Shown here: piece by piece, positions 33,596-63,366 of the stretch
Position numbering within the stretch: position 1 is the first letter of the stretch
How the letters are laid out: every line of letters starts with the position of its first letter
NCBI GenBank assembly: GCA_965655095.1
Contig: OZ296648.1
Coordinates: 155,682,001-155,746,000 of the forward strand
Source: Haplodiscus bocki
Lineage: Eukaryota
Length of the DNA: 64,000 nt
Direction of reading: 5' to 3'
Made by a program: the position numbers and the translations under genes
The notes under the pieces: generated by a model
What the model was told of the DNA's origin: nothing
What the model saw: only the letters and a program-made list of their open reading frames with translations
Database searches by the model: none

Positions 33596-33596
33596 A

Positions 33597-35141
33597 TTTT
33601 TCGCAGCTTATGTAATATGCAAGAAAAATTATTCATTCAGTAGGGTCGTTTCTCTTTTTTTTATCAGTCCAAAATTGCCAACTCTTTTTATTGAAAAATA
33701 ATTGACAGGAGTAGGGTTAGGACAACAGCGTTCTCAAGCAGTAGGTTTGGGGTTCGAGTCTCTGTCGTGCCAATTATTTTTACGATGTATCCTCAACATT
33801 TTTTGATACCGGAAATAAGTGAAACATTAAAGGGTTCCTTTACGAAGTTTTTCGGCACTGTAAGACAAAAACTTGTCGACGGAAAATTGTGATACCCCCT
33901 ATTATGCATAAAACTTTTCTATATCCCCAATTTTTCTGAAACATTGGAAGGATGCCCACGAAGTTTTTCGGCACTGTGAGACATAAAAATTTCGACTGAA
34001 AATCGTGATATGCCCCCTGTTATCCATAAATTTCTTTCGATACCAAAATTTTTGTGGAAAACAGAAGGGTTCCTTTACAAAACTTTTCGTTTCGGTCCTC
34101 TGAGACAAAAAATTCGACAAAACCGTGATGCCCCCCCCCTCCTATGCTTTGTGATACCCCCTATTATGCATAAAATTTTTCGATACCGCAATTTTTCTGA
34201 AACTTTGAAGGGATGCCCACGAAATTTTTCGGCACTGTGAGACTAAAACTTTTTCGACGCAAAAACGTTATACCCCCTATTATGCATTAAAATTTTTCGA
34301 TACCCCAAATTTTCTGAAAGATTGAAGGGATGCCCACGAAATTTTTCGGCACTGTGAGACCAAAATTTTCGACGGAAAAACGTGATACCCCGCGTTTTCA
34401 TCCATATAACTTTTCGAAACCAGAAATTTTTTCAAAAACAGTAGGATTCCCTTACGAAAGTTTTCGGCTCTGTGAGACACAAAAATTTCGACTGAAAATC
34501 GTGGTATGCCCCCTCCTATCCATAAATTTTTTTCGATATCAGAAATTTTCTGGAAAACAGAGGGGTTCCTTTACAAAGCTTTTCGTTTCGGTGCTGTGAG
34601 ACAAAAAATTTTCGACAAAACCGTGAAGTTTCCCCCATACTTTGCTTTTTTCGATACCAGAATTCTTTCGAAACAGAAGTGTTCTCCTACGAATTTTATC
34701 GGCACTGTGAGACAATTTTTCCACGGAGTTTAGTGATATCTCCTTCTTTTGCATAAAATTTTGCGATACACGAAATTTTCCGATACACCGAAGTGTTCCC
34801 CAACGAAATTTTTCGGTACTGTGTGAAAAAAGTTTTAGACGGAGAAATGTGATACCCCCCTCTCTGATGCTTAAAGTTTTTCGATACCCGAATTTTTCCG
34901 ATACACCGAAGTGTTCCCCAACGAAATTTTTCGGTACTGTGAGACATAAAATTTTGAAGGAAAAGTCGTGATAACCCCTCTTTTGCATAAAGTACAGAAA
35001 TCAGTGGTGGAATTGATGTTTGTAGAAAACTTTTGTAAACTAGCTTTTAAACACTAGTCTCGTTCTTAATTGTGGGCAAATGTTGATGAAAATATTTGTA
35101 TTCCTGCGAAAAATATGCCGGTGCTAGCCGGCCGCCTTGTT
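33597..35141 (+). mobile_element. HINE-like copy 2, head-to-tail with copy 1, longer array
   Basis: Same 5' block (tatgtaatatgcaaga...tagggtcg) and same 3' end (ATATGCCGGTGCTAGCCGGCCGCCTTGTT), with more tandem units. Confidence 0.7.
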
Positions 35142-38100
35142 AAATTTTCGTTCAAATTGTCTTCAAATTTTCAAATCATTCCACAGCAATTTTACTTTTA
35201 ATTTCATCGAATTTTGTAATTTCTCACCCAAAATATAAAGCAAGTTGGCTTGCTTTGTATGTCATAATTCTTTTTCAAATCAATTAAGAATGATGTTCAG
35301 AGAGTATCCAAAAATAGATCTGAGTAATTCCAAACTAAATTAGAATGGTCCGTCTTCAAGAAGTCAGCCGACAAAGAGAAAAGAGGGTATACGATGCAGT
35401 AAATTTTACAGAAGGGGCTTTAGTTGGAATATAATTAAGTTACTGATAACATTTCAGACCGAGCAACATGGCTTAGGCAGAATCTTGAACTTTTAAGCTC
35501 AAACTTTTGAACCCTTGAGTGTTGTTGACTTCCTTCAAGTCTACCCTCTAGACAGACTTGCTTGAATATTTTGTGTTTGCTAATCCTAATGTCGGTAACT
35601 GTTGTGTAACCTCAAAGCTAACAAAATAGGTTCGTTTATTACTTTACAATGCCAGGATTAATTTTGATCCCAATTTTTTAATCAACTTTTTGACTGCTTC
35701 CTGGTTTGATGTCTGCAACCTGCAAAATCTTTATGGTGTTGATTGATTTATTGAAAGATAAGCAATCACCATGGCTTGCTCCTTCGATATATAAAAATCA
35801 TTTTAGGCTAATTAAATGACCTGTTTAAATCCTGTTTTGCCCTTCTGCTTCAAAGGCCTTTTCAATTTATCCATTGCCATTTTGCGATGTAGGTCGATAT
35901 TGCGGCTTGAATGGTGGTGTCGGAACATTTGCATGGATTTTAAAGGGATTTTAAATCCATTGATGATAACTAGGGTGGCCGTCGTAAGTCTCGGATTTGG
36001 GGATAAATTGCCATCTCTATTTTACAATCATTATTCCATGCAGAAAATGCCTGTCTGTTTAAATTCGGTTAAATTGATTTTAACAACGTCCATTACCAAT
36101 GAAGAGCATTGTTCCAAAAATCTTCGTCAATACCGAAAGTTTACTGGGGTTATAACTTGTGATGACCATTTTTAAAATCAAAAATGTTTTTTTAATCAAA
36201 ATGATTCTGAGAAATTAGTGAAATAATTCCAATTATACAAGATGAGGATACATTGAAACAAATTAGGGTCTTGTACAAATCCATGTTGATCGAGAGGCGT
36301 TGCACAGCCGGAACAAGTAGCTGGCTTTTGTCGTCATTCGACAAGTAAGACGCTTTTGGGAAACCTCTCTGCGTAAGCATGCACGGTAAGTTGGCTAATG
36401 GCGGATAATTGAGGGATAACTATCACAATTGAAGTACCATGGAGTAGTGAATCTTTCAGTTAATACATGCACAAACGTAGCAAGCAAAAGAAAAGTGGCA
36501 CTGAAGAGTAGACAATTCGAAGGAGTCTCAAAAGAAAGCACGAAAAGTCCAATGTATGGTCACGCGCGTCACCAAAAAGACACCTGGTTAATTACTTCCA
36601 GGATATTATTCTTCTATAAAATTAACGAAAACTAATTGCTTGGATGACTGGGTCCGTGTACCTGTCTTGTACGACCGGACCTCGCGAGTATTTCTGCGTT
36701 AACTCCAAGTCTAGAAGTCTCGCGAAACTATTAGCTCGATCTTAATTGGTTGAGAGCTTGTGACCTCACAGGCACATGACCCTATGGGAATAGAAAATAG
36801 AATACTAGTTCTGCTGCGCCTTTGTTGAATTGGTTATAGTGAAAAAAAAACAATTGAGAATATTGGCGTGATGATTTTGCTTCCATAGAAATATGGGTGG
36901 AATTATTTCTTACGTTCCCCCCGGAAATGCGGTATTACTGCTGTGAAACCAATTGGATCTAATTTATAATCGTTTTTATTCGAAACTTATACGGTCAAAA
37001 TAGTTGAGCGGTTTGACTGCAGCTACTTCGCCTTTGAGAAAATAATAGGGGGATTTTTCTTAGTTTCTTTCCAATAATTATCCGCGGTTGAAAGGTAGCA
37101 ACTAAATGCAAGCTTTATTTGATTCGGTGCAGCCCATTGATACTTTCCGTTTCTTAGCTTGGGGCTCACTTATTGTAAATGCTGGTCCAATTTCCACGCT
37201 GTCTCCATAGATGCATTTTACTGCTATCCAAATGTGTTTTTGTGGCGAAAAAGGAAGATGGCAGTAGAGGACGACGGATTATAGCTGCTTTCCGTCATGT
37301 AACAGCAATCTCGGCTGTGATTATTTTGCTGTCTTCAAATGCATTTGATCACATTCATTAACCAGTCTTGCCCTCATTCACTCCCGTTACCAAAGCGCTG
37401 CTAGACAATGAGCATTGTATTCGCGAATTGCAAAGCTGCTGAAAGTCTTGTTGCTAAAGAAAATAATATGATGGAAAAAAGAAGAGGAAATGGATTTTGA
37501 TACACGTGCAACTTGGATATATCTATCTTCTAATATCCCGACCCCAGTTAAATATCTCCTTTTGTCTTCATTTTTTGTGTCCCCAGTTCTCGCTCCTTAT
37601 TCTGCTCCCCTTTGATTTGTAGTTGGATTGTGGGCTGATTAGAAGCAAGGAGAGACAGCTTTTTATTATCACTCTAATTGCAGTCTTAATGAAACACATC
37701 CATTGTGTCCGCCTTCTCCCAATACATATACAATCATCATCACCCGCAGAATCATGAACACAGGCATACATACACACAAAGACACGCGCGAGCCAGTACC
37801 CACCTCTGTTTCATTATAAAGGATGCGAGGAGGCTAAGGACGAGAACGACAGATACCTGTCCACATTTGACTGCAACCTTCTCCTCCTCTTATGCTGTAA
37901 CCTGTAAACCGCACATATGTGCAGATGTGAATTTATGGCCTTAGTTTTTGGTTACAGCGGATATCATTTCGGTGGAACAAATTTTGGTTTTAATTTCAAA
38001 ATGACTTGTGATAGGCTTGCGGAACAGTAAACAATTAGATCTTTTCTACAAATCCCGAATTTCTTGACTTTCTCATAGAGAATACTATGGTGTAGAAAAT

Positions 38101-44862: not shown

Positions 44863-45272
44863 GTACGCCATCTTTCAAATCTTCCAAAATTGTTATCTCT
44901 TTGAGTAATTCAAAAGATATATTTGACAAATTTCGCCCTGTCCAGCAAGTAATCAATTAAGAAAATGTTTGAGCTGATTCAAAATAGAACCTTCTACAAT
45001 GGTTCTTGAAAATTACAATTCGTTTCCTCAGCGTATCCTCCTGATGACGTCTCAGATTTTTCAAATATTGGCTGAAGAATGGTCATTGTATGAATGGGAC
45101 TAGTTAGTTTTTGAAAGTAATTCTTGGGCCACCTGAGAATCCGATCGATATCTTGGAAATGTTTTCGTTGATGTAGAAATATTCTTGGTAAAATGGAATA
45201 ACTTCTGGATATATTTTGAGTGATAAATCAACTTTTTTGTATGATAAAGTAGTCGAAATTCAACTGTTTCAG

Positions 45273-46309
45273 GTACCAACCAACAGCAATTATCCACCTA
45301 CTCAACAACCTTTACCTGCTCCTAATCAGATGCCATCAGGTAGTTTAAAGCAGGCAGCCGCAGTAGCACAATTCCAACAACAACGCCAACACTTAGCTCT
45401 ACAACGTCAAAACTCAACTCCGGCGGCTATGATGGGAAATATAGCTATGAACCCTTCTGGGCCAACCTCACATTCTTTCTCTAGAATAACGCCTCCTAAC
45501 AACAATTCAATGTTTCAACACCCTCAGCCTACAAGCTACAGTGCCAATAACCCCTCTGTTGGCGGAAACCAGTTAGTCACTTCTCATGGACATCCTTCAG
45601 GGCATCCTGCAATGGGGGTAACTCCCAACATGATGCACTCCGCTGCAGCAGCTGCTGCAGCCGGCATGCAAGCCAACTCAGCGGCTGGGTCCCACGTGAG
45701 CAACACCAATATTCAATCACCTGCTGGGTTGCTACCTCCAAACGGTATGCAACCTCAACATCATCAGTTTCATCATCAAACACAACAGCAGCAACAACAG
45801 CAATTCATATCATCTATGAACCAACAATCGAATCAACAGCAGCAGCAGCAACAGTCTGTAAGAAGTCCGGCTGCTTCTGTGAACACCTTCAATTATCAAA
45901 ATCCATCTAACCAAGCTCCTAAGTCGGGTACTCCTGGTGCGTCTTCGAATGCAGCAATGGTTCTAGCATCTCCTAACCAAGTTCAACTGGTAGGATCGCC
46001 CTCAGCGGTGCCTGTTTGTTCCTCTAGTGTAAACGCATCTATGATGTCAATTATGTCAGCAAACAACGGTGCCGATGTCAAACTTTCCTCAGTGTCTGCT
46101 CTTGCATCAAAAAATGACGTCATCAACAACAACTCGGTCGCCGAAAAAATTCAGACTCCTCCCAAGAATGAGGACCTCAGGCTGATGTTTCCTCAAGAAA
46201 AGCAAATCCTCATTGAACCTTTTCAAATAGATCATGAAAAAGGAAGAATAACGCGCACCTTCTTCATCAGCGAGGCAATGATCAACAAGCTACGGAACCC
46301 TCAAACTAG
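45273..46309 (+). CDS. ZMIZ1: ZMIZ-family coding exon 6 (Q-rich region and start of conserved pre-SP-RING domain)
   Basis: Acceptor tgtttcag|GTA, donor TAG|gtttgt. Phase 0->2. EDLRLMFPQEKQILIEPFQIDH resembles ZMIZ1 [21 protein letters not shown]. Confidence 0.88.
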
Positions 46310-46657
46310 GTTTGTTTTTGTTTCCCCGTTTTAAATTTTTCATGAGTATCAAGTTTTCCCAAGTTGAATTATCATGAATGTTATTGTAATTAGCAAATTC
46401 AATAATGGGGTATAATTGGCTTGCATGCATGGGCTCCCGATAGTCGCCAAGTTGTTTCAAAAATTGTAAAGTTTACAGATCCGACGTTGTTCTAATTTAT
46501 AATTTATACTGTAACCTTTGAAATATTTTAATGATTCGTTGGTTGATTTTTGCTGCAATTGATCTGTTGCCGAATGCCAAAGCTTGAAATATTTTCTATA
46601 AAGACTTTTGCTATTTCTATGTTTTCAACTCATCTGTAGTTTTGTTTGTTTGTGTAG

Positions 46658-46874: not shown

Positions 46875-46890
46875 GTAAGTCGTTCCTTCC

Positions 46891-49800
46891 TGTAGAATTT
46901 TCAGGAATGTAACTTCCAACTCGATTAAACCGTAGTACCACTGTCCACGAGACGGGGGACCGGCCGAGATCCACAAAATATTTATAACTCCAAAATTAAT
47001 CAAAGGGAGATTCAACTTCGGAGGCGGTGGGGTTCTTCTGCAAAGTATATGCCTAACTCTGTAATTTTTATCGTTCAACTGAGAGGGGTGTCTCGTAGCT
47101 CTTTGACTGTTAGTTACGTAAATTGAAGAAATTTAGTGTCTGGCAAAGAATGTGAATTACTTTCTCACAGACAAATTTTCTCCGTCAATAAATACACTAA
47201 TAATAAGATAATAACTGTCAACAACACAATAACTGCAGATAATATAGCTGGTTCAGACTCACACATCCAATAATATCAATTAAATACTTCAATAAATACG
47301 TTTCAGTCAATTAAACAATTAATAGCATCGAATAATTTGGAGACAATTTATTACTATAACCTTCCGTTGTTAGTCAGTAAATCTCTCACTTATAGCGGAA
47401 TTGGATCGAACACCAAAACCACGACTCACAATTAATAAACGAAGAAATTCAAGTCTCACTAGACTTTCGAGCGAAGAAATAATCGATTTCAACAGTCCCG
47501 GAGGACTGTTCAACAATACTTCTCAAAATTACGATTTCCCAACTTCAGTCCTCGACTAAGTTGAAGAAAACAACAAACGGCTTTAAGCAAAGTAGCAACT
47601 GCCCGGCAATTCAACTCACTTTCTTTTGGCCTGTAATCGTAATCGTAACTGTTCTGATCCCAGATCAAAATAACGTTTCCGTAAAAATTCCAAAGAAATC
47701 CATAACTTCAGTCCCAGACTAAATTATGATCGCTCGAAAAAATACGACGGCTTTAAGCAAAGAAGCAACTGTCTCACAGTTCACTTTCTTTCCTTTTTGG
47801 CAGCGTTCAGGGATGCTCCTTTCGCTTACGGCACTCTTGGTTTCGTATTTTTACCGCTAGGGCTATTTTCGGCCTTGTTATTATTAATCCGGTTAATCGT
47901 ATCCATTAATTCATAAATTGACCTATCAATTTTTCGCTAGTTGATTCGTTTATTTCACTTCGGTACAATAATCATCAGTTTTGGTACTACTCGGTGTTTG
48001 TTTTCTTTGCTTACATCAGTTGTGATTAATTGATTTTGGTCGTATCCACTGGCAAAACGAGGGTCGTAAAAAATGAGTAAGAAAATACCTCTTCGTTTCC
48101 ATTCGTTTATGTCGCCATTTTGATTGACAACCTCTTTCGGCTGATGTGTCAGCTATTCTATTCGTCGCGCGTGACCAAGTAATTCCAAAATAAGTGGTTA
48201 AAATATCTTCCCTAACCATTCCCATCATAATATCCATGCAAAAATAAATGTCCGAAAAAAGGCGTAATTTTTGTCTAAAATTCAATAATTAATTGTGTCT
48301 ATCATATATGTCCTAAATATAACATGAGCACATCATTACACGCGGTATTCAATGTAGCTTCTAGCAATGTATACTTTGTTATAGTTATTTTCAATATTCG
48401 TTGTCGAAAAATGCGATTTTCTGAAAGTAGTCAAAATTCCATGTCCGAAAAATCGATTTTTGGTCATTCTGAGGTCATTTTTGTCAACGTATGATTTTTT
48501 TCCAGGGCGGGGGTGGTATTTTCCTGTTAGTACATTCAAGTAAGAGTTTTTTAACGAAAAGATGAGCTCTCTAGCTGGTCTCAAAAAAAAGTTATTCAAT
48601 TTTCCGCAAAAGTACCGATTTTGGCCATTTTTGACTACCTGGGTCCACCTTCAAAGTCGATTTTCTCAACGTACAGGCAAAATTTCGGAAAATCCTTGGT
48701 CAGTTTCCTGGGGGAGGTTGTTAGGAACATTGTGTTAAATTTTGGGCTTTCTATCTCTGCTGGCCTGCGGGGGGGGGGTAGCCGTTTTGCAAGTCGACAT
48801 TTTCCAAAATCCGTGATTTTAGCTAGCTGCAATTTTTTGGGGCGGCCATTTGTAGCTTACTATGCTTGTTCTATTGTTATTTTCCTTTCCTCCTAATAAT
48901 AAGCTTTCGATCGCTGTTAATATGATCGATTTCTATTGGCTACTCGTTAACTAATAAGCGAAAAACTGCGATTTTTGACGGTTTTAGGCTGTTTTGGGCG
49001 TTTTTTGGCTATTTCTCACTCAGTTCTCCAAAATGACTGAATATAATCGATTCATCTTTTCAGGGACATTATTCCATTCAAATATCTTCCGTTTAAGACT
49101 AATACGAGCTTTTTCTGATGCGTGGTTCGCTCAGAATAAATTTTTAACTGAAGTCAATTTGGCCATTTCTGGAGTGCACTTTCTGTTTACTACAATTTTT
49201 CAATATCTTAAATTCGTCCGATTTTGCTCATATTCCAAATTTAAGCTTTCCTATGGATGTAGTTTACAATGGTGCAAACCGTTTGTCGATATCTTTTTTC
49301 ATCTTCGAGAAATAAGCAAGCAAACATTGGGGAACATTAAAAAAACAGGTCTAATTTTGAGCAGCGTGAGCGTAAATATGCTAATACGTGGGGTGGTGGC
49401 GGCCGTGCGCGTGGTCAAAATTCATTCCAAAATCACTTCTATTGTATTCCTTTTGTATTTATAACAATTTGTGTCCACTCCGCTTTCACTTTTAAACGCC
49501 TCCAAAGTTGCAAGTGAACTGTGAAATCACAATTGTACCATTTTCCGGAACGTAATAATGTTCGTTTTGATTTTTCAACAATTTTTAATTTTCAGAATGC
49601 GGTGAAAATCACCCAACTTGTTCGTCTTGGAATGTAGTTTTCATTGGTGGAAACCGTTTTGCTCTATTCATAATAGTCTTCGAGAAAATGGACGTCAAAG
49701 TTGGGGTTCGAATTGGACCAACTTTTGAAATTTATACTGCTGTTGCTTTGCTATGTTAATACACGTGACAAGGTCGTTCTAAAATAACTATTACGTGCTC

Positions 49801-50086
49801 CGCGGCTTGTTCACATTCCAACGTCGTGCTTATTCAGTTCAATATTCACTTTTCACGTATCATTCTCACTGCTAAATTTCACTCAATTCACGTGCACTGA
49901 CTCAGCAAATTTCAATTTTGCAAAAATGGCAAATATGATGGACTTATTTCCTAATTTCTGACCATCAACCTATTTTCAGCTATTAAATACGTAACTTTAA
50001 ATCGCAAATGGAAGGTTCATAATATAGATCAAGGTTAAGATAATGTTGAAACAAAACAAAAAAAATTGTGTACTACAAATCCCACA
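46891..50086 (-). repeat. 3' LTR (3196 bp)
   Basis: Direct repeat of 59371-62551. On the minus strand it starts TGTGGG and ends TCTACA, and is adjacent to the PPT. Confidence 0.96.
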
Positions 50087-50098
50087 TTCCCCCCCACT
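50087..50098 (-). promoter_or_regulatory. Polypurine tract
   Basis: Minus strand AGTGGGGGGGAA immediately precedes the TG of the 3' LTR. Confidence 0.9.
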
Positions 50099-50443
50099 TG
50101 GAGTACTACTCTCCCGAGTAGTTGCCGGGGTTTAAAAAATTGTTTTCATCGTTCTAAATCACTTATCAGTATCCACGTGCAAGTAATTTCAACTGTAATT
50201 TGCTTTCAAAGTAACCTAGCTATAAAAACATCTTGAGTACCCTTGAAAATCAATTAACTTATTTCAATTCTAATTCGTCCAAGTGGTGGTACACGTTAGA
50301 TTGTTGGTCAATGCAGGACCTTTTCGTACGTCGCTCTGTAAGGAGGGCAAATAAATACAGGTGGGATCACCAGAGCAACATCATACAATGATATTATTAA
50401 CATCAAATAAATCTTACGTTTCATAGGAGGAGAAGTTTGCTGA

Positions 50444-52707
50444 CTAGTTTTTCATCAGCGGCTTTTTCGAGCTCGTTTCTCCCTGGGAGATTTTCGGGGG
50501 AGCAGACTTCTTTGCACTCTCTTTCTCTAACACACTTTCTTGCGCTCCGTCGATGTTGCTCAACTCCAATGCGGCGGCAGCGGCAGTCGCTTCATCGTTG
50601 CTTCTAAATCGTTCCACGTACTTCTTCATTGCATATAGCTTCCCCATCTTTAGGGCCCAGCCTAACAATAGTAACAGCCCCAAAGTAATCAAAGTGGCCC
50701 CACACGGCAAAATAACATCTCTCCAGATTTTCTTCACGATTGTTGTGTGAACTTCCTCAACCTCTTGCATAAATGGCTGTACTACTGCCGCCAACATTTC
50801 TTCAGTAATACGGCGATCAGGCAAACCTGCTAAATTCAACTTTAAGTGCGATAACAAATTCTGATGGACATCTCCCATCAGTTCAGGAGGGATAACATCT
50901 TCTAATTCTTTCAGTCCTTCGAATAAGGGACGCAGCAAGGGGGTGGGTAAAATTCGTACGATATCGCTGGCTTCTTGAATACATGTAAGGGGATCTGGAG
51001 TTAGGAATAAACCAGCGTTCGGAAGTTGCAACCTACCTTTACACGAGGGCTTAACTAAGCAACTTTGGCATCCCGGGACACGAATTTCTCCTTGCTCTGT
51101 CAAATTTTGCATTGTAAAATCTCCCTTTGCGGATGTTAAAAGATACGTCGAATCAAACAAATACAGGGCTTGCGGATGTTGAGGTAGCGCGACAACTTCT
51201 TGGGCACACAGTTTCAGGACGGTAGCGGGAAGATTAAAATACAGGCCGGTTAAGCAAGTGGTCTGCTGCGATTTAGTTGTCGAAAACGGTTGTTTACATA
51301 AGCGTAGCCGGTGCCAACCCCAACAATGGGTAGAAAGTTCCTGCTCGGTGACTTCCGCAAAATTCGTTTTATCCCATGACATCAACAAGTGCGTTTTCGA
51401 CAGATGGTATTGCGTCGCACGTTCGGTCTGCGGTATCGGTTGGGGAATAGGGGTTGCTCGGAATACGTCGTGCACTCCGTGTCCCGTATAAAGAGGTATC
51501 TCGATCAGCAAATGCAACCCCTCGTCCGGAATATAAGCGTCTCTCACAACTTCAAAAGTATAATACGCGGCTATTAGTTTTCTCGGAATCGCCTCGTTCA
51601 ATCCGTACATCTCAAACGTGTCTTAACTTTTCGAAAGGATCGTCGGAGGAATCAACGCTATCGGCAAGTATCCGTGAACTAATGAAGCCATCGCATCTTG
51701 CATTAAGGAAGCCATATTAGCCAGCGAAATACGTTGCTGGTTTACATCGTTTAGTAATCGACGGTATTGAATCGTTAAATTCTGAAGAGACGCTGCGATA
51801 ATAAGAGTGTTACGATGTCGGTCTTGCGTATGTCGAGCGACGCACTCTCCTTTTTCTACGTAGTCCTTAATCTCTTCAAGTACTCCTCTAATTGTCTCGT
51901 TTAACATTTCTACGTTTTCTTGCAGGCTTCTTTTCAAAGCGGGGAGCTTTCTCCTCTCAACGTCGGCCGGCATTCTAACCGTTATCGCTTCTAACAACTT
52001 AGACTTCAAATAGAAAACATTTTCTTCTAAATCCTTAACTTGCTCGGCTAAGGCTTCTATTTTCTTCCGTTCGTCTTCCTTACAAAGTGAACCAAAAGGG
52101 ACTAACTTGTCAACAAAACATGAAAATTTATCTGCTATCGGGGCCGTAAAGGGTCTTAGGAAAACTCTGGATAGTTCACTTCCTAACGCGGTTCCAACAA
52201 TTGGTACCAAGAGAGATCTCTTGTACCTATTCGGTCTTTCAAACGTTCGATCTTGCAAAGAGCTATTTAAAAACACAGTAAGCGATTGCCTCATAATCTC
52301 GAGATCCGTTTTGAAAATCTGATGACTCTGGAAAACCTCAGCTAAATTATCACGTAACAATTGCTTCCGATACGAGAAGAGGTGCGTGTCGGGGCATTCG
52401 TGTTGGAACATCCTAAGGTCTAGGTCATTCAATTCAAACAAAGCTTGATCCAAGATCTGATTCAAGGGTTTGGGATCAAGCTGGGGTATCTCGGGAAAAG
52501 GAATGTTGGTCCACAAGGTTTTAAGAGCTTTTACTAACGCTACCGGCGGTTGAGGTGTAAACGCAGCGCCTGAGATTGAGTGTGATCCATTGACAATTCC
52601 CAGAGTGTCTTGTCGTCTATGGAAGTCCCACTCCTATTGCCCGGAATTAGCACGGAATTAGGAACTCCTATTGCCGCAAAAACTAGGAATAACAACAATC
52701 TCCTCAT
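50444..52707 (-). pseudogene. env: env, class I / baculovirus-F-like fusion glycoprotein (one N-terminal frameshift, one in-frame TAA)
   Basis: Signal peptide MRRLLLFLVFAAIGV (ATG 52707). Furin site RYKR|SLLVPIVGTALG (52217-52228), heptad repeats, Cys-rich ectodomain and TM ILPCGATLITLGLLLLLGWAL. ORFs 51623-52516 and 50444-51610 are in frame, separated by TAA plus 4 codons. Confidence 0.88.
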
Positions 52708-52728
52708 CGTAAGGGAAGAAAAACGAAA

Positions 52729-52753
52729 CTTGAGGGAAAAATGAGGTAGTTAG
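52729..52753 (-). promoter_or_regulatory. Putative env splice acceptor
   Basis: Minus strand CTAAC (branch point), then a pyrimidine tract, then AAG|, 21 nt upstream of the env ATG. Confidence 0.6.
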
Positions 52754-53399
52754 AAATAAATGTTAATAGCACAAGACCGTGGACAGTGTAAGGCGTTAAA
52801 ACGACTGTTCATTAGGTTGGTCGGCAAGTGAATGACGGGAACAGCGTAAGTGAATTGCCAATCAATTCCGATCGTGGTGTCTCGTACCGCGACAATTGTG
52901 GAACGGGATTGGTCAATACGAACCATTAGTAGTTCGCTCGATGGGTTCGCCTAATCGGAACGAATGGTGAGCTTGCATTACTTCAGGCGACTCTGCTCAC
53001 CGGCAAGAGTCATGCCCGAAGTCTATCTTCGTTATTTACATCTATTAACAAATTCGTCTATCCCGAATCGCACAGGCAGTCTCCTAACTCTACTTTCTCG
53101 GCCTGTCGGGACATCCGAATCTCGTTGCGATTCATTTTGTGAATCATGGTCAGTGTCTAAAGGTCTTTCGGGTGCATCGTTACGCACGGTGCTCCTTTCA
53201 CTCTCGCTGTTTTCTGAGTCATCGCCCGGTATAGTTTCGTAGGCGGTCAAATGCGGCGAAGTCTGGCGTTCAACATTCTCATCGTGTGGTGTGTTTCCGA
53301 TTTCCGACTCGGAGTCTTGCTCTACGATTTCTGGTATCGTTTTAAACGTTACCTTAGGTCTATTTCTCGCGGCTTGCGACTCTGCCGTCGTCGTTTCAA

Positions 53400-56300
53400 T
53401 CACATGGAACGGGCTGTCTTCGTTTTCTCCTCAGTTTCTACATCGTTCGGGATTTCTTCGTAAATCGGAGGGGGTCGGTTTTTAAGCCTACTGGAGTGTC
53501 GTACTTCGGGATTTCCTCTATACGGTTTTAAGCGGTTAAAATGTACCTTTTGCCACTTTTCTTTATTTCCTCGTTTACAAATCGTGTAAGTGACCTCACT
53601 CGTTCGGCTAAGAACCTCGAAAGGACCGTGCCAAGGCAAATAAAACTTTCTGGACTTCGCCTTGTGAGGTTCGAACAACCAAACAAGGTCTCCTTCTTTA
53701 AACGGTTCGCCATGTACTTTTCTATTAAAATACTCTCTTTGTCGTCGTTGCTCGGTTCCCATAGTCATTTGCGCGTCTCTATGGATTTCGTATAAGCGTT
53801 CATTTAACTGCTCTGCGTGTTCGCCTAGCTCTAGTCTCGGGTCTCCCGGGGGTTTCGGGACAAACAAATCTATGGGGTATTGCGCTTCCCTCCCAAAAAT
53901 CATGGAGTACGGCGTCGCTCCAATCGTTCGGTGGACGGTGGTGTTATACACAAAAGTAATATAAGTCAAATACACATCCCACTCTTGTGGTTTTTCAGCA
54001 CAATATTTTGAAAGCGTATCAGCAATGACTCTATTAAATCTCTCGACCTGCCCATTTCCTTGGGGATGATACGGCGTAGTTCTTGTTTTCTCAATAATAA
54101 AAATTCGGCAAATGTCGTGCATTAATTCACTGTTAAAATTCGAACCCTGATCAGTATGAATCACGTCCGGCGCTCCGAATTTCATTATCCACTCGTCTAT
54201 TATGGCGTTTGCCACGGTCGCAGCCGTCATATCTTGTAAAGCCACCGTTACGGCGTATTTCGTAAACAAATCACTCATGACTAGGATATATCTGGCCTTA
54301 GATTTCCTAGCTAACGTTACGGGTCCCAAAATGTCTGCCGCCATAGTTCTAAACGCTCCGTGGACAGAAAAAGTTTGCAATTCCTCTTTTCGTTTAATTC
54401 CAGCGGTAGATCTAGCCGCACAACGATCACAATTAGCTATATGTTTTTCTACACTCGTTTTAAGTGAAGGCCACCAAAATCTCTGTTTTATCCTTGCTAA
54501 AGTTTTCTCGACGCCAAAATGTCCACCACTCATTGGAGAATCGTGTAACTGATACAAAATCTCATTTCTCATTTCTTTAGGAATAATCGCTTGCCAGCAT
54601 TCATTCACTCGATTACTAGGCTTCCATTTTCTATACAAAACTCCGTTAGATGTCGCAAGGTCTTCCCAATTACTCCAGAGTTCTAATGCGTCGAGGTTCC
54701 CCCAAGATTGGGCTTCCTCCTTGTAGATCGGATTCTTTCCGAAAGTACAATGCGAATCTTCTAAGTTTACACCGTATCGTTCAAGTGCACAAATAATGAT
54801 CTTAATTGTCGAGTCGGCCCGCTGCCGTTTCGCGAGTTCACTGTCGGACCTAGTCCACGAAATTCGTTCTTTTACACCTTTATTCATTAACATCTCCTCG
54901 GGAGTTACTACTGCGCAATGATTTGGTTCTCTTGAGGTGTTTTCACGAGAATGGGAGGGGATTGGATGGAAGTGTTGTTCGGCTTCGGGAGTGTATACAG
55001 TTAAAGTACAGTAGACATCTTGAAAGATCGACTCGAGACAAATAGCAACGTTCGTCCACTCTAATCGGTCATCAACAACTCCGATTCTAGGCATTGCGAA
55101 ACACGAAACGCCTTTCAACGCCGCATGCGCACTCATTTCTCTCAGACACGATTTCAAATCATCATATTTTGCAACGTCGGTATACTTTTCTTTAGTCATC
55201 AACAAGTAAATATATCTCGATTGCTCGCTGTCCCAATACACTAACATTCCTCCAACACGATTCACAGAATCTTCTGTCGGTCTTAAATGCGAATATCTAA
55301 CGACAAATTCCGTCATTGGCGACGATTTAACTCGCATGTCGCCTGAGACGCAAAAAACCAACGAACTGGACGATTCCATAAAATTTCCCGTTGCATATTT
55401 CACTACTTCTCTCGGAGGATGGGGGACTTGTATTCTAGCGTGCGCTATTACGTCCGTATCTTTCCTTTTCGAGGAACTACCGCTATTTAAATCTTCTTGA
55501 GCACCACCGAGCGCCGTCTCCATCGTCTGAAATTCCGGGATTTGTCCTCGCAACTCTTCTTCGCCTTCTTTCCATTCTGGCCTCTCATTGGGCCTTCTAC
55601 TAAGTCCGTCGGCGTTACAGTGTTTTTCTCCCGGCCTATGAACTATTCGATAATTGTATTCTTGCATCTTCTGAATCATTCGGAACGTCATTCCGTCGGC
55701 GTTTTGTCTAAATAGCCACTGAAGGCTCGCGTGATCGGTCCTGACTATACATTGCGACCCATAAATGTAAGGACGGAACCACTGCATCGCTTGTACAATA
55801 CCTAGCGCTTCTCGTTTCGTTGTGGCGTAATTTACTTCCGTCTTACTCAAAACTCTCGACTCAAAAGCTATCGGACGCTCTTCTCCATCAAATATTTGCG
55901 ACAAAACCGCACCGAGTGCCGTTTCACTTGCGTCTGTATCAATCACAAAGGGGTGGCGAAAATTCGGGAACGCTAAATTCGGAGCCTGTAACAATCTCGT
56001 TTTCAATAACTGGAACGCATCTTCGTGTTCTTTTTCCCATGTAAACTTCAATCCTTTACTAGTCAATCGGTACAAAGGTTTGGCGACTTCTGCAAAATTT
56101 TTCACAAACTTTCGATAATAATTACAAAACGCCGTGAAAGATCTCACTTGGGTCACCGTCTTCGGACGTTCCCAATCTCTGACTGCTTCTAATTTTTTCG
56201 GATCGGGTCTAATTCCTGTTTTATCCAACACATGGGCTAGATAATTCACTTGAGTTTGAAACAAATCGCACTTCTTGGGCTTCAATTTCAATCCGGCCGC

Positions 56301-57347
56301 GCGCAATTTTAGAAAAACTTTCTCTAAGTGCTCTAAGTGTTGCACCGGCGTCTCACTATAAACCAACAAATCGTCCAGGGAAATTAAAACATGCTTAAAG
56401 AGGTCTTCTTTGAAAATTTCGTTCATGAGTCGCTGAAAAGTTGCCGGTGCATTCGTCAATCCAAACGGCATTTTCACAAATTCGTACAGACCACCTTCCG
56501 GTGTACAAAAAGCGGTTTTATGTCGGTCCTTTTCTGCTACTGGCACTTGCCAATAACCACTGGCTAAATCAAGCGACGAAAAATATCCTGCGCCTTGCAA
56601 TGCGTCTATCGTTTGTCCTATCCGAGGAAGAGGATACGCGTCCTTCGTCGTTATCTCGTTTAACTTGCGATAATCTTTACACATTCTGTTCGTTCCGTCT
56701 TTCTTGGGGACCATTACAATCAGACTGCTATACGGACTTTTACTAGGGACGATTACTCCTTTATCTAACATTTCCTTGATTTCTTCTTGAACCGCAGGCA
56801 TTTTATATGGAGCAACTTTGTAGGGAGCAATTTTAAAAGGCGGGTTGTCGTTAGTGTCTATAAAACGTTCCGTCCCGATTGCAGTTCCGAGCGGATCTTT
56901 TGCCAGCGCAAAAACGTCGCGGTAATTACCAATCAAGCTAATCAACTTTTCCTTTATTCGACTATCTTGCAAGTCCGAGGCGGCTAATTCAACGATTTCA
57001 TTTACATCTTCGTCATTTTTCCCTAATACTTCGTAAGAGACAACTGGTTCTTCGATTTCGTCTTCGGTTTGGAGGACGCAAGCCCTCTCGTCGGTCGGTG
57101 GTTCTAAGCGGTCTCCTACGTATAAGGGGACTGTCGTTTCGGCTTGATCTCTTATTCGAATTTTGAGAGTTTCATTCTCAATGTCAACTTGACACTTGTT
57201 ATCGCAAAGGAATTTTAGACCAATCAACACATGTGGGTACAACTCATCTACTACAATAAATTCGTCCGTACTTTTTTGTTTTCCAAACGTTACTTCAGCT
57301 AACATTTTTCCGTCTATGGGCATCACGTTGCCTATCGGGCCTAACAC
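53400..57347 (-). CDS. pol: Pol: protease C-terminus, RT, RNase H, macrodomain insert, integrase
   Basis: RT motifs LDLASGYWQV, MPFGLTNAPATFQR and SLDD. RNase H motifs DTDAS, TKREALG, RTDHASL and NADGLSR. Integrase H...H...CDRC, ADILGP, HTDQGSNF, GQVERFNR and a GPF motif. A +1 A at ~53424 detaches the acidic C-terminal tail (53032-53403). Confidence 0.95.
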   Translation of the reverse strand: MLGPIGNVMPIDGKMLAEVTFGKQKSTDEFIVVDELYPHVLIGLKFLCDNKCQVDIENETLKIRIRDQAETTVPLYVGDRLEPPTDERACVLQTEDEIEEPVVSYEVLGKNDEDVNEIVELAASDLQDSRIKEKLISLIGNYRDVFALAKDPLGTAIGTERFIDTNDNPPFKIAPYKVAPYKMPAVQEEIKEMLDKGVIVPSKSPYSSLIVMVPKKDGTNRMCKDYRKLNEITTKDAYPLPRIGQTIDALQGAGYFSSLDLASGYWQVPVAEKDRHKTAFCTPEGGLYEFVKMPFGLTNAPATFQRLMNEIFKEDLFKHVLISLDDLLVYSETPVQHLEHLEKVFLKLRAAGLKLKPKKCDLFQTQVNYLAHVLDKTGIRPDPKKLEAVRDWERPKTVTQVRSFTAFCNYYRKFVKNFAEVAKPLYRLTSKGLKFTWEKEHEDAFQLLKTRLLQAPNLAFPNFRHPFVIDTDASETALGAVLSQIFDGEERPIAFESRVLSKTEVNYATTKREALGIVQAMQWFRPYIYGSQCIVRTDHASLQWLFRQNADGMTFRMIQKMQEYNYRIVHRPGEKHCNADGLSRRPNERPEWKEGEEELRGQIPEFQTMETALGGAQEDLNSGSSSKRKDTDVIAHARIQVPHPPREVVKYATGNFMESSSSLVFCVSGDMRVKSSPMTEFVVRYSHLRPTEDSVNRVGGMLVYWDSEQSRYIYLLMTKEKYTDVAKYDDLKSCLREMSAHAALKGVSCFAMPRIGVVDDRLEWTNVAICLESIFQDVYCTLTVYTPEAEQHFHPIPSHSRENTSREPNHCAVVTPEEMLMNKGVKERISWTRSDSELAKRQRADSTIKIIICALERYGVNLEDSHCTFGKNPIYKEEAQSWGNLDALELWSNWEDLATSNGVLYRKWKPSNRVNECWQAIIPKEMRNEILYQLHDSPMSGGHFGVEKTLARIKQRFWWPSLKTSVEKHIANCDRCAARSTAGIKRKEELQTFSVHGAFRTMAADILGPVTLARKSKARYILVMSDLFTKYAVTVALQDMTAATVANAIIDEWIMKFGAPDVIHTDQGSNFNSELMHDICRIFIIEKTRTTPYHPQGNGQVERFNRVIADTLSKYCAEKPQEWDVYLTYITFVYNTTVHRTIGATPYSMIFGREAQYPIDLFVPKPPGDPRLELGEHAEQLNERLYEIHRDAQMTMGTEQRRQREYFNRKVHGEPFKEGDLVWLFEPHKAKSRKFYLPWHGPFEVLSRTSEVTYTICKRGNKEKWQKVHFNRLKPYRGNPEVRHSSRLKNRPPPIYEEIPNDVETEEKTKTARSM
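54990..55406 (-). other. TARG1/OARD1 (Poa1p-like) macrodomain embedded in Pol
   Basis: RYIYLLMTKEK...YDDLKSCLREMSAHAALKGVSCFAMPRIGVVDDRLEWTNV...LTVYT aligns with human TARG1 RYIYYLITKKR...[40 protein letters not shown]...ITVYT. Confidence 0.9.
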
Positions 57348-57903
57348 GGTGCGGGTGCGGGTTTACGGGTTTTCCAACAAGGGACGCCATGTGGCGGCTA
57401 ATTAAACTGGTACTTGCTCCAGTGTCTACAATGGCCCAACAGGGTAGGTCCTCTACTTCGCATTTTACCCACATTCCGGGGCTTCGTCTAAAGTTTCCTG
57501 TTGCTACAACACTCGGTTCATCCGTATTTTTCGCTTCAAATACTACGGGTTCGTTTCTCTGTAGGGTCCTGAGAGATCCAGTTTCTGCGTTACTGATTTG
57601 CGTTTCAAAGGGGGGATTTCGTGCAAAGCGATTGAGAGGGGGTTCATTTTTAGGGAAAACGCCACCTGGGCCAAAATCCTCGTTCATTTGGTTCCAAGTG
57701 GTCTTATCAACGTACCTCGATCGCGGATTCCGGCCGTATCGATTCTCTGAGCTCCGCGACCTATCTCTGTTTGTTACGTGCTCTCGACCGCTAAACTGGC
57801 TAAAGTTTTGGGGCGGGTTTTCACTTAGTGTAGCAGTTGAAGAATTATAAATTTCAGGGGCGGAGGTACCTGCTACTGTAGCTCCGGCTGAACCCAGTTT
57901 AAA
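57295..57903 (-). pseudogene. pol: pol N-terminus / aspartic protease (frameshifted into RT ORF at ~57348)
   Basis: WAIVDTGASTSLIS retropepsin active site. An apparent 2-nt loss (CGT GTG TTA -> CGTGTTA) separates it from ORF 53400-57347. Confidence 0.9.
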
Positions 57904-59288
57904 TGATCGCTTTTGTTCGTTCGTTTGGGACAGTCGCGCGCAAAATGCCCTATTTCTTTACATTCATAGCATTCGGCTCTCGAGGGAGGTGGATTTTTTA
58001 AACTCACGTGACCGAACGGCTTGTTTGGAGCGAAACGGCTGTTCGTGTTCTGATGCGACTGTGGCTGCGGTTGTGTCTGTGGTAACTGCCCAGAACTGCT
58101 GCTGCGAGGACCACCAGCAACTCCCACCAACACTGTCTTCAGGTCGGTCATCGATGCGGCCATCGCTGCTGTCATCACTGCTGGCATCTGCGTCATCACT
58201 GCGGTCAGCTGCGTCAGGTTGTCATTCATGCTCTTCATCAGCTGCTGGGTAGCGTCTCCCTGCCTCGCTACCGTCGCGTCCAGCTTGTCTAGTCGATTCG
58301 CCACTGTGCCCATCGACGTCTGCAAGGCTGCAAACTTCTCCTCCACCGGACCGTGAGAGTTCGGGAAGCTGGCCCTGACCACATTGTCCTGCTCCCAGTC
58401 GTCATAAGAAAATCGCACTCTGTCTGCTCGTGTCGTCTTGTCTCGTCTCTGGTCCACATCCCTTGCATTTTTCTGGATCAATTCCAGTTCTTGTGCGCGC
58501 TGCAAAACTTCACAAAAATTACGACTTGTTTCATCTTCGTACAATTTTTGCTGGAGCCTCGAGTCAAAAAGCCCTTCTGATCACGCAGATCTTTGTCTTT
58601 CTCTTCTAACGTTTTTTCACAGAGTGCTAAGTCACCTAGGTAACGGACGCGTCTAAAGTACTCTTTTAAGCACTCATTTTCGTTCTGTCTAACTGATTTA
58701 AACTCGCTACGGGTCGCCCTAGGACTCCTATACTGTTGCATTTTTGGTTTAAGAACCTCTAACAAAGTTTCAAAAAATGGGGCCTCTTCCCCGGGTACTT
58801 TTTCGATATACTTGCGTGGAACGGTTTCGAACTCCTCCACTGCCCAGGACGTTAAACAAGCCGGTAGTGCCGCGATAGCTTGTTGATCTGTCCAGCCGTT
58901 CGCCTTTGCCACAGATTTGTAATGCTTCACCCATAACTCCCATCTGTTGAAGTCTTTCCCAGGGAATTTCTCTGGCTTGATAGGGGACTTCTCGTAAACT
59001 GCTTTCGTCTTCCGCTGCCGCACGCCCAGAGATTCTGCAAAGATAGATTCGTCACTATCAGAGCCACCTGTCGTACCCAACTCCCGAAGTCTGAACTGCA
59101 AATCTTTCATCTGCATTCTCAAATCGTGTGCTGCTCTTCTTTCTCCTTTCTCTCCCCGCATGGAAGAAAAACCAAAACCAAGTTTTTTCGATCCTGCCCT
59201 GGCATCCTCTTTGGAAACGTCTTCGAGGTTCCCACTGACACCGGGGGATTCCACTTGCTTGCAAGTCTGTTTCGTTGTCAGACGCCAT
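57873..59288 (-). pseudogene. gag: gag (capsid-like region, coiled coil, CCHC knuckle) with two frameshifts
   Basis: ATG 59288 (MASDNETDLQ). Removing a GCAA duplication at ~59255 joins ORF 58478-59254 (KPEKFPG..W..W, LRDQ). A deletion at ~58577 joins ORF 57873-58544, which ends in CYECKEIGHFARDC. Confidence 0.9.
57897..57903 (-). promoter_or_regulatory. -1 ribosomal frameshift slippery heptamer T TTA AAC (gag->pol)
   Basis: Gag codons CAT TTA AAC give X XXY YYZ just before the gag stop. The -1 frame is open from here into the protease ORF. A CGGAG...CTCCG stem lies just downstream. Confidence 0.8.
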
Positions 59289-59350
59289 AATAATCGTGAA
59301 GGGATAAGGGAAGTTTCTCAATAACGATATTGAATAAATCAAGAGTCAAT

Positions 59351-59369
59351 AGCCCACCCAGGAGCGCCA
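59351..59369 (-). promoter_or_regulatory. Primer-binding site complementary to tRNA-Asn 3' end
   Basis: Minus strand TGGCGCTCCTGGGTGGGCT lies 1 nt from the LTR. Its complement AGCCCACCCAGGAGCGCCA closely matches animal tRNA-Asn(GUU) 3' ends (...GAGCCCACCCAGGGACG-CCA type). Confidence 0.85.
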
Positions 59370-59370
59370 C

Positions 59371-62300
59371 TGTAGAATTTTCAGGAATGTAACTTCCAAC
59401 TCGATTAAACCGTAGTACCACTGTCCACGAGACGGGGGACCGGCCGAGATCCACAAAATATTTATAACTCCAAAATTAATCAAAGGGAGATTCAACTTCG
59501 GAGGCGGTGGGGTTCTTCTGCAAAGTATATGCCTAACTCTGTAATTTTTATCGTTCAACTGAGAGGGGTGTCTCGTAGCTCTTTGACTGTTAGTTACGTA
59601 AATTGAAGAAATTTAGTGTCTGGCAAAGAATGTGAATTACTTTCTCACAGACAAATTTTCTCCGTCAATAAATACACTAATAATAAGATAATAACTGTCA
59701 ACAACACAATAACTGCAGATAATATAGCTGGTTCAGACTCACACATCCAATAATATCAATTAAATACTTCAATAAATACGTTTCAGTCAATTAAACAATT
59801 AATAGCATCGAATAATTTGGAGACAATTTATTACTATAACCTTCCGTTGTTAGTCAGTAAATCTCTCACTTATAGCGGAATTGGATCGAACACCAAAACC
59901 ACGACTCACAATTAATAAACGAAGAAATTCAAGTCTCACTAGACTTTCGAGCGAAGAAATAATCGATTTCAACAGTCCCGGAGGACTGTTCAACAATACT
60001 TCTCAAAATTACGATTTCCCAACTTCAGTCCTCGACTAAGTTGAAGAAAACAACAAACGGCTTTAAGCAAAGTAGCAACTGCCCGGCAATTCAACTCACT
60101 TTCTTTTGGCCTGTAATCGTAATCGTAACTGTTCTGATCCCAGATCAAAATAACGTTTCCGTAAAAATTCCAAAGAAATCCATAACTTCAGTCCCAGACT
60201 AAATTATGATCGCTCGAAAAAATACGACGGCTTTAAGCAAAGAAGCAACTGTCTCACAGTTCACTTTCTTTCCTTTTTGGCAGCGTTCAGGGATGCTCCT
60301 TTCGCTTACGGCACTCTTGGTTTCGTATTTTTACCGCTAGGGCTATTTTCGGCCTTGTTATTATTAATCCGGTTAATCGTATCCATTAATTCATAAATTG
60401 ACCTATCAATTTTTCGCTAGTTGATTCGTTTATTTCACTTCGGTACAATAATCATCAGTTTTGGTACTACTCGGTGTTTGTTTTCTTTGCTTACATCAGT
60501 TATGATTAATTGATTTTGGTCGTATCCACTGGCAAAACGGGGGTGGTAAAAAATGAGTAAGAAAATACCTCTTCGTTTCCATTCGTTTATGTCACCATTT
60601 TGATTGACAACCTTTTTCGGCTGATGTGTCAGCTATTCTATTCGTCGCGTGTGACCAAGTACTTCCAAAATAAGTGGTTAAAATATCTTCCCTAACCATT
60701 CCCATCATAATATCCATGCAAAAATGTCCGAAAAAAGGCGTAACTTTTGTCTAAAATTCAATAATTAATTGTGTCTATCATATACGTCCTAAATATAAAA
60801 TGAGCACATCATTACACGCGGTATTCAATGTAGTTTCTGGCATTGTATACTTTGTTATAGTTATTTTCAATATTCGTCGTCGAAAAATGCGATTTTCTGA
60901 AAGTAGTCAAAATTCCATGTCCGAAAAATCGGTTTTGAGGTCATTTTTCTCAACGTATGATTTTTTTCCAGGGCGAGGGTGGTATTTTCCTGTTAGAACA
61001 TTCAAATAAGAGTATTTTAACGAAAAGATGAGCTCTCTAGCTGGTCTCAAAAAAAACTTATTCAATTTTCCGCAAAAGTACCGATTTTGGCCATTTTTGA
61101 CTACCTGGGTCCACCTTCAAAGTCGATTTTCTCAACGTACAGGCAACATTTCGGAAAATCCTTGGTCAGTTTCATGGGGGAGGTTGTTAGGAACATTTTG
61201 TTAAATTTTGGGCTTTCTATCTCTGCTGGCCTGCGGGGGGGGGTAGCCGTTTTGCAAGTCGACATTTTCCAAAATCCGTGATTTTAGCTAGCTGCAATTT
61301 TTTGGGGCGGCCATTTGTAGCTTACTATGCTTGTTCTATTGTTATTCTCCATTCCTCCTAATAATAATCTTTCAATCGCTAGTAATATGGTTGATTTCTA
61401 TTGGCTATTCGTTAACTGATAAGCGAAAAACTGCGATTTTTGACGATTTTAGGCTATTTTGGGCGTTTTTTGGCGATTTCTCACTCAGTTCTCCAAAATG
61501 ACTGAATATAATCGATTCATCTTTTCAGGGACATTAGTCCATTCAAATATCTTCCGTTTAAGACTAATACGAGCTTTTTCTGATGCGTGGTTCGCTCAGA
61601 ATAAATTTTTAACTGAAGTCAATTTGACCATTTCTGGAGTGCACTTTCTGTTTACTACAATTTTTTAAAATCTTAAATTCGTCCGATTTTGCTCATATTC
61701 CAAACTTAAGCTTTCCTATGGATATAGTTTACAATGGTGAAAATCGTTTGTCGATATCTTTTTTCATCTTCGAGAAATAAGCAAGCAAACATTGGGGAAC
61801 ATTAAAAAAACAGGTCTAATTTTGAGCAGCGAGAGCGTAAATATGCTAATACGTGGGGTGGTGGCGGCCGTGCGCGTGGCCAAAATTCATTCCAAAATCA
61901 CTTCTATTGTATTCCTTTTGTATTTATAACAATTTGTGTCCACTCCGCTTTCACTTTTAAACGCCTCCAAAGTTGCAAGTGAACTGTGAAATCACAATTG
62001 TACCATTTTCCGGAACGTAATAATGTTCGTTTTGATTTTTCAACAATTTTTAATTTTCAGAATGCGGTGAAAATCACCCAACTTGTTCGTCTTGGAATGT
62101 AGTTTTCATTGGTGGAAACCGTTTTGCTCTATTTATAATAGTCTTCGAGAAAATGGACGTCAAAGTTGGGGTTCGAATTAGACCAACTTTTGAAATTTAT
62201 ACTGCTGTTGCTTTGCTATGTTAATACACGTGACAAGGTCGTTCTAAAATAACTAATACTTGCTCCGCGGCTTGTTCACATTCCAACGTAGTGCTTATTC

Positions 62301-62551
62301 AGTTCAATATTCACTTTTCTCGTATCATTCTCACTGCTAAATTTCACTCAATTCACGTGCACTGACACAGCAAATTTCACTTTTGCAAAAATGGCAAATA
62401 TGATTGACTTATTTCCTAATTTCTGACCATCAACCTATTTTCAGCTATTAATTACGTAACTTTAAATCGCAAATGGAAGGTGCATAATATAGATCAAGGT
62501 TAAGATAATGTTAAAACAAAACAAAAAAAATTGTGTACTACAAATCCCACA
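59371..62551 (-). repeat. 5' LTR (3181 bp)
   Basis: Direct repeat of 46891-50086, followed on the minus strand by the PBS. Confidence 0.96.
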
Positions 62552-63366
62552 CTTCCTTAAGCTACTTTCTATTCACTTCCTCACGCGAGCGATCTATTTC
62601 AACCAATTAAATGCTGTTTATGAAGCGCAGGTATTGTGCATAATCGTTAAAGCGATTCTATTGATGACAGTTATTAACAAGTCCATGAAATTTGGTTATA
62701 TTTTCGAATTTACAAAACGTATGTGTTCGCTAGTGTTCGGCGGCGACTAACCGAACACAACCGAAATGAGTAAATCAAAAAGCGAAGCGACGTTTCAGAG
62801 TAAAAACCGACAGTATTAATGCATAATAGGTGAAGTAGCAATAATGGAATTTAGCGAACTTTTCGCGAGTAAGCACATCTAACCAATGAGAATTACTTAT
62901 AGCCATTGAAGATTGGTGGAAGTTCCCCCTCATAGAAGGAAAATTTGAGCTTCACGTTGAAGTGATGTCACTTTACTGAGATGCTGGCTGTAGTTTTGGT
63001 CTGCTTAAAAGAAAATAGTTGTTCTTGGATAATTAAATTTGTTTCAACTCCCGAAACCAAACCGATTTTGTTCAGAAAGCGTACCAAATTGAACCGCGAA
63101 GTTTTTTCCAAAACCGCTGAACTCTAGTGTCCGCATTCGAACTCGCAGGCCCAGTTGCCCTTAAACGCTTATAATTGGAAATTAGAAAAAGCTTTTCAAA
63201 TTTTCGTCTTGTTACAAGGCAAAATCGAAGCTTTAGTTTTATCAGAAAAAAAGTTTAAATGAGTGTAATTATGAATGTTTTATAGAACGTATGATTCTCA
63301 TTATTTTTAAAAGTTTAATTTCCTTGACAGGTGTTGTTTGCAAATTTGAATTTTGTTTCGTTTCAG

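Follow-up and report, generated by a model that had tools for sequence, protein, structure and literature searches.

Human TARG1 (OARD1, C6orf130; 4J5Q, 4J5R and 4J5S) is a macrodomain of the ALC1-like class. The catalytic pair of TARG1 consists of K84 and D125 (PMC9967889), and the K84A mutant does not rescue DarT (PMC8501950). Each of the pocket substitutions G43E, I44E and G123E abolishes both ADP-ribose binding and hydrolysis (de-MARylation), and the G43E and G123E proteins still bind RNA via basic surface patches (PMC5928194). In viruses, Mac1 of coronaviruses and alphaviruses provides the precedent for an ADP-ribose eraser that serves as counter-defence, and a Gly-to-Val exchange in the pocket of the SARS-CoV macrodomain abolishes de-MARylation (PMC5156301). 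As to retroelements, a review citing Basta et al. 2009 places macro domain (or CNPase) proteins in certain epsilon-like endogenous retroviruses of fish (PMC4977317), and a short review on retrotransposon accessory domains does not mention macrodomains (PMC6338049). Our literature search returned no account of TARG1-type domains in Ty3/Gypsy Pol; subscription papers, database annotations or Repbase reports may contain one. A macro domain in a retroelement is already known from the fish elements, and a TARG1-type domain in Ty3/Gypsy Pol is undescribed in the literature searched.

The window, by which we mean the whole 64,000-nucleotide stretch of Haplodiscus bocki DNA that was analysed, contains a complete LTR retroelement of 15.7 kb on the minus strand (46891-62551; Table 1). 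Its PR-RT-RH-IN order, H2C2 finger, rve core and p58 / GPY/F-type C-terminus, all from Pfam, are those of Ty3/Gypsy (Metaviridae), and TG...CA LTRs, target-site duplication, tRNA primer site and polypurine tract are all present. The comparison of the primer site with the 3' end of the host tRNA-Asn(GTT), a tRNA called by ARAGORN, gave 8 exact genomic matches and the reversed control gave 0. These tRNA-Asn(GTT) genes are clustered (L127-L129) with tRNA-Ile genes whose anticodon was read as GAT, an unusual one for eukaryotes. The two LTRs differ by 59 mismatches over 3181 aligned bases, therefore the insertion is young. The copy in the window is broken, with gag split into two frames, the protease frame off and a stop in ORF3, and its RT catalytic motif carries a private substitution.

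The initial annotation had called the element an envelope-bearing Gypsy element, and ORF3 bears this out as env-like. In a natural open copy, ORF3 has hydrophobic stretches at the N- and C-terminus together with a furin-like site. It has no Pfam match and its fold model has a pLDDT of 38.7. The nearest atlas neighbours are the F0, Baculo_F and Gypsy envelope clusters (0.91-0.93, at a low recognition score), and a profile of 7 sequences matched 9W4C, a 'fusion protein', in the PDB with an E-value of 2.9e-5. By these matches ORF3 is likely homologous to F-type class I fusion proteins. The element shares gag, PR-RT-RH-IN, env-like ORF3, LTRs and a tRNA primer with errantivirus-like Gypsy elements bearing an F-type env, which is a likeness by gene content rather than a clade placement against named reference RTs, and it differs from them by its 3.2-kb LTRs, 5-bp target duplication and tRNA-Asn primer. 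On the plus strand, about 550 bases from the retroelement end, lies a Gln/Pro-rich exon-like frame (45192-46334) that ends in a weak ZMIZ GBD-like match (Pfam E 0.0096), and the retroelement may sit within an intron of a ZMIZ-like gene. A degenerate array of ~118-bp repeats occupies 32650-35150 of the window, with related units near 27700-27950.

Table 1. Coordinates of the retroelement and of its macrodomain in the window
Feature	Position	Strand	Remarks
Target-site duplication	46886..46890 (+) and 62552-62556		CTTCC, 5 bp; flanks the element
5' LTR	59371..62551	-	3181 bp, TG...CA
Primer-binding site	59351..59369	-	complementary to 3' end of host tRNA-Asn(GTT)
gag with CCHC knuckle	57873..59317	-	two frames here, 58478-59317 and 57873-58580 (Pfam)
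Aspartyl protease frame	57295..57957	-	in a different frame from the remaining Pol in the window copy (Pfam)
Pol frame	53400..57362	-	1320 aa; protease end, RT, RNase H, macrodomain, integrase
Reverse transcriptase RVT_1	56232..56711	-	Pfam E 1.6e-33
RNase H	55596..56039	-	Pfam; C-terminal end NADGLSR
TARG1/OARD1-type macrodomain	54990..55406	-	Pol residues 653-791, 139 codons; ADP-ribose pocket rewritten
Pocket loop 1	55314..55331	-	V-K-S-S-P-M replaces TARG1 M40-G-A-G43-I44-A45
Lys equivalent to TARG1 catalytic K84	55191..55193	-	kept (alignment)
Pocket loop 2	55071..55079	-	V-V-D replaces TARG1 C122-G123-L124
Asp equivalent to TARG1 D125	55068..55070	-	kept (alignment)
Integrase H2C2 zinc finger	54408..54584	-	Pfam
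Integrase core (rve)	54063..54341	-	Pfam
env-like ORF3	50444..52633	-	furin-like RYKR, coiled coil, C-terminal hydrophobic stretch; one internal stop here
Polypurine tract	50087..50097	-	directly before 3' LTR
3' LTR	46891..50086	-	3196 bp, TG...CA

The macrodomain is in frame within Pol, 63 aa past NADGLSR and about 135 aa ahead of the integrase H2C2 finger, and the minus strand is open over its whole length while the plus strand has stops. The interval between RNase H and integrase is longer than the macrodomain, which fills only part of it. The initial annotation's claims of an RH-Macro-IN order in Pol, of likeness to TARG1/OARD1 over the full length and of retained K84 and D125 equivalents all stood. 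A phmmer search of the PDB returned TARG1/C6orf130 as the best match (E 1.7e-16, residues 12-139), whereas the Pfam Macro profile scored 14.5 bits on the window domain, under its 22-bit cut-off. The AlphaFold2 model of the domain reached a pLDDT of 91.7 and has the ALC1-like macro fold; its alignment contained 64 TARG1-like homologs, so that the model leans toward the TARG1 fold. Top matches to this model in Foldseek were all TARG1 (4J5R; TM 0.88, E 2.3e-14). The window domain is ~30% identical to human TARG1 over the whole domain, from which it differs at G43, I44, G123, H32, A45, K90-P91 and L124, by a two-residue insertion at 58-59 and by its place inside a Pol polyprotein. Next in Foldseek came bacterial DarG and yeast Poa1p, of the same fold class (TM 0.76-0.84; 0.80-0.84 for DarG and about 0.77-0.79 for Poa1p). 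The window domain has the catalytic Lys position in common with DarG, but the two proteins are only 14-18% identical to it and gave no significant sequence match (DarG E 0.92), and DarG belongs to a toxin-antitoxin context that the window domain lacks. A bacterial DarG origin of the domain was dropped, being without sequence support. Coronavirus and alphavirus Mac1 is further away in fold (TM 0.73-0.78 to the window model), is of MacroD type with about 10% identity, and needs a pocket Gly that the window lineage does not have. The fish endogenous retroviruses are likewise env-bearing retroelements with a macro domain, but they belong to Retroviridae and the window element to Ty3/Gypsy; their macro domain reportedly lies in pol.

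The pocket of the domain was compared among its relatives. A search of 1.84 billion representatives gave 805 matches at E ≤0.001, and the best 150 of these 805 yielded 115 full-length domains outside family A, the window's own family; families B and C are represented by P0005 and P0006. Another homolog search brought up hardly anything but fragments belonging to the element's own family. Both glycine-rich pocket loops turned out to be substituted, which the initial annotation did not mention. Measured against the 115 homologs (from the best 150 of 805), G43 (112/115) reads S/E/L in families A/B/C, I44 (100/115) reads P/A/P and A45 (109/115) reads M in all three. In the second loop, G123 (113/115) has become V/V/I and L124 (98/115) has become D. 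Outside the loops, F/F/L stands in place of H32 (109/115) and V-A in place of K90-P91 (101 and 108 of the 115). Core and C-terminal helix positions are kept in the three families, as are the equivalents of D37 and G121 in family A. Family C has Arg in place of the catalytic Lys, and in family B the Thr before this Lys is Val. Among 30 family A copies chosen on the integrase finger and not on the macrodomain, the G43 and G123 equivalents are non-Gly in 30/30, and the equivalents of K84 and D125 are kept in 29 and 30 copies, respectively. Both Gly are absent from 12/12 loci of family B, 11 of which carry Glu at the G43 position. The pocket substitutions are family traits, present in copies of A and in B. 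The Gly required in the SARS-CoV macrodomain presumably occupies the TARG1 G123 position, going by its motif.

The initial annotation had further proposed that this element carries an ADP-ribose eraser or reader. This part was not supported for the window element, as G43/I44/G123 read S/P/V in the window and are non-Gly and non-Ile in B and C. The window domain exists and is conserved, yet it is probably no active eraser of the kind proposed. We consider it moderately probable that the domain is a pseudo-enzyme with a dead pocket, which Pol retains for a structural or protein-binding role, because G43, I44 and G123 are replaced in 30/30 copies and in the sister families. Against the pseudo-enzyme reading, family A keeps the K84, D125, D37 and G121 equivalents, and the published TARG1 mutants carry Glu where the window has S/P/V; the structure model, moreover, speaks to the fold rather than to the geometry of the pocket or to a ligand. 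The domain could instead be an eraser or reader whose remodelled pocket takes another substrate or binds with lower affinity, and which would serve the element as counter-defence to the PARPs of the host. This seems unlikely to us: all three experimentally required pocket residues are replaced together with H32, A45, K90, P91 and L124, K84 gives way to Arg in family C, and bulky side chains would stand where the diphosphate must pass. It would agree, on the other hand, with the retained K84, D125, D37, G121 and W129 equivalents, with the purifying selection described below (omega 0.10), and with the stretch R-I-G-x-x-D-D-R-L-E-W-x-N-V-A-I-C around the pocket, which hardly varies among A, B and C. 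Of 41 host candidates, 31 matched a PARP domain, a count without animal comparison, which also fits a remodelled eraser, as does the use of a different catalytic residue by SCO6735, another ALC1-class protein (PMC9967889).

The copies of family A number at least 150, with 92-100% identity among the 150 scored out of 4843 candidates, and family B has at least 104 copies in the same genome at 79-100% identity (104 of 150 scored matches); family C was not found in the H. bocki genome, where its best match was 61%. The macrodomain is retained in 30/30 integrase-chosen copies of family A, and dN/dS within the family was calculated on integrase-chosen copies, with 30 macrodomain-chosen loci left out. 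Macrodomain variants common to at least two copies comprised 18 nonsynonymous and 49 synonymous changes (omega 0.10), compared with 75 and 36 among the singletons (omega 0.57; Fisher p 2e-7 versus shared). Elsewhere in Pol, the shared-variant omega was 0.02 in RNase H, 0.06 in the integrase core and 0.13-0.21 in the linkers. The window macrodomain is under purifying selection and is conserved family-wide with a dN/dS well below 1, and an insert that is unique to this copy or neutral is ruled out by the at least 150 copies and the omega of 0.10. Between families A and B, synonymous sites are saturated (pS 0.75-0.87), and dN amounts to 0.28 in the macrodomain, 0.38-0.48 in the flanking linkers and 0.07-0.14 in RT, RNase H and the integrase core. 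In the macrodomain tree, A/B/C group together (SH-aLRT 100), with a stem of 2.1 changes/site and short crown branches, a shape that points to rapid change followed by stasis. At 80-88% RT-RH identity, macrodomains of A/B/C are 62-68% identical versus 47-54% for domains with an intact pocket, and the A/B/C domain shows no relaxation relative to the intact-pocket domains. The stronger statement that A/B/C are more constrained than intact domains was true against RT but not against the integrase finger, and was dropped.

Selection may reflect only the need not to misfold in the polyprotein, because the linkers are also constrained (omega 0.13-0.21). In that case, the domain would be a passenger that has lost its activity and is kept only since its unfolding in frame within Pol would harm RT or integrase. 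The lost pocket and the constrained linkers accord with this, as does a dN at two- to fourfold the level seen in RT, RNase H and the integrase core. We regard it as improbable, however, since the domain persists at full length in three families, with synonymous sites saturated between A and B, and in 30/30 copies, since the substituted pocket residues are themselves common to A, B and C, and since relaxation versus intact-pocket domains was absent.

TARG1-type domains with an intact pocket were found in other Gypsy families. A search of the same genome with canonical TARG1-like proteins as queries brought up at least 6 further Gypsy families, of two other RT lineages, that carry such a domain in Pol, and a further 1628-aa family was seen in this search. 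Families D, E, F, G and H (L115-L121, L133-L135) have the same RT-RH-Macro-IN order as the window element; they keep K84, as the window does, and also the G-I-A and G-(L/I)-D loops, which the window lacks. They form a separate RT group (support 100/100) whose RT-RH is 42-45% identical to that of A/B/C. An env-like ORF3 is present in families E, F and G, and no ORF >150 aa was detected within 2.7 kb past pol in family D. In the third RT lineage (L130-L132, G000:C7:7356849 etc.; about 150 matches), the intact macrodomain stands before RT (protease-Macro-RT) in 1886-aa frames, and RT is 31-34% identical to the other lineages. The eight families examined in this genome thus span three RT lineages, and two of them (A and B) have the putatively dead pocket. 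Intact pockets were also seen in 29/29 loci of L086-L114, a sample biased by its choice for likeness to the canonical domain.

Of 119 public proteins scanned, 59 pair a TARG1-type domain with retroelement domains, and many of these are pieces of the same families; one named record is from a beetle (P0350). Within public Pol proteins the domain lies before RT (P0325, P0357, P0358), between RNase H and integrase, once or twice (P0280, P0317, P0321, P0337), or after integrase (P0173, P0213, P0299, P0322). The RH-Macro-IN architecture recurs in other Gypsy lineages and the window element is not unique in this respect. Both loop motifs are kept in 14/17 hand-picked proteins outside A/B/C. Because the domain occurs at three Pol positions, its distribution suggests more than one capture event in Gypsy. 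The macrodomain tree of 69 rows, for which 44 of 113 other homologs were picked, was unresolved at depth and identified neither the donor nor a single versus repeated capture. In the intact-pocket families the domain would likely remove ADP-ribose from element proteins or nucleic-acid ends, and the eraser reading appears to fit these families better than the window's element.

For the pseudo-enzyme reading of the window domain, we propose that an ancestor captured an active TARG1-like eraser, such as other Gypsy families in the genome appear to retain, that hydrophobic side chains (Val, Pro, Met) came to fill the pocket in a phase of rapid change, and that this state was conserved from then on. 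The macrodomain would be made and packaged as part of Pol. In A/B/C, a junction-like motif follows the macrodomain (recognized by eye from motif likeness, and ambiguous), and cleavage at this protease-site-like motif would probably leave the domain on the RT-RNase H end and not on integrase. This makes the initial annotation's placement 'next to integrase' doubtful for the mature protein. In D-G, a motif right after RNase H resembles the elements' own gag/protease junction (also by eye and ambiguous), and cleavage there might leave the intact domain on integrase. The partner of the window domain would most likely be a viral or host protein surface, and less so RNA. A role as a non-specific binder of RNA or other nucleic acid in reverse transcription, through the pocket-independent RNA binding of TARG1, strikes us as very unlikely. 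RNA binding through basic patches survives in the TARG1 G43E and G123E mutants (PMC5928194), and the domain probably stays on RT-RNase H, both of which speak for such a role. Net charge speaks against it, at -3 in A and -5 in B versus a homolog median of +4, with values of -3 or less in 4/115 (from the best 150 of 805), and K90 is lost; the net-acidic argument fails for family C (+3).

More promising as a lead is that Gypsy elements repeatedly carry intact TARG1-type domains and that one genome has intact families paired with putatively dead ones. Tentatively, and as a possibility that we would not yet call probable, Gypsy elements might have captured TARG1-type erasers repeatedly in response to a tagging of their proteins or nucleic-acid ends by the PARPs of the host. 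ADP-ribosylation would then restrict LTR retrotransposons as a layer so far unrecognised, and within this arms race the window lineage would have gone on to a decoy or binding module with a dead pocket. Should the intact domains prove active, LTR retrotransposons would, like coronaviruses and alphaviruses, be carriers of an ADP-ribose eraser of their own, and a control of retrotransposons by PARPs would be indicated. The genome offers a natural paired test, with matched RH-Macro-IN families of intact versus rewritten pockets and many young copies of each, and macrodomains are small and easy to express. The window domain itself would clearly exemplify how an enzyme, once captured, became a conserved pseudo-enzyme, and it would warn that retained catalytic residues are no proof of activity.

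Several further arrangements of TARG1-type domains were noticed in the searches. In P0213 (1651 aa), a Gypsy-type RT-RH-IN precedes an intact TARG1-type macrodomain and a Tpt1/KptA RNA 2'-phosphotransferase (Pfam E 3.1e-6), so that a single retroelement combines a domain resembling an ADP-ribose writer with one resembling an eraser. The Gypsy Pol proteins P0280 and P0321 each contain a pair of macrodomains in the interval from RNase H to integrase; the second one is strongly diverged (branch 3.4-3.7) and constitutes a second case of a degenerate copy. Candidate host TARG1 genes are present at L124 (G000:C2:12301500-12311400) as a pair of macrodomain ORFs whose motifs are intact and which have no retroelement domain in their vicinity. 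In many public DNA ligase 3-like proteins (P0142, P0149, P0190, P0279-P0312), a macrodomain of TARG1 type separates the ligase core from the BRCT domain.
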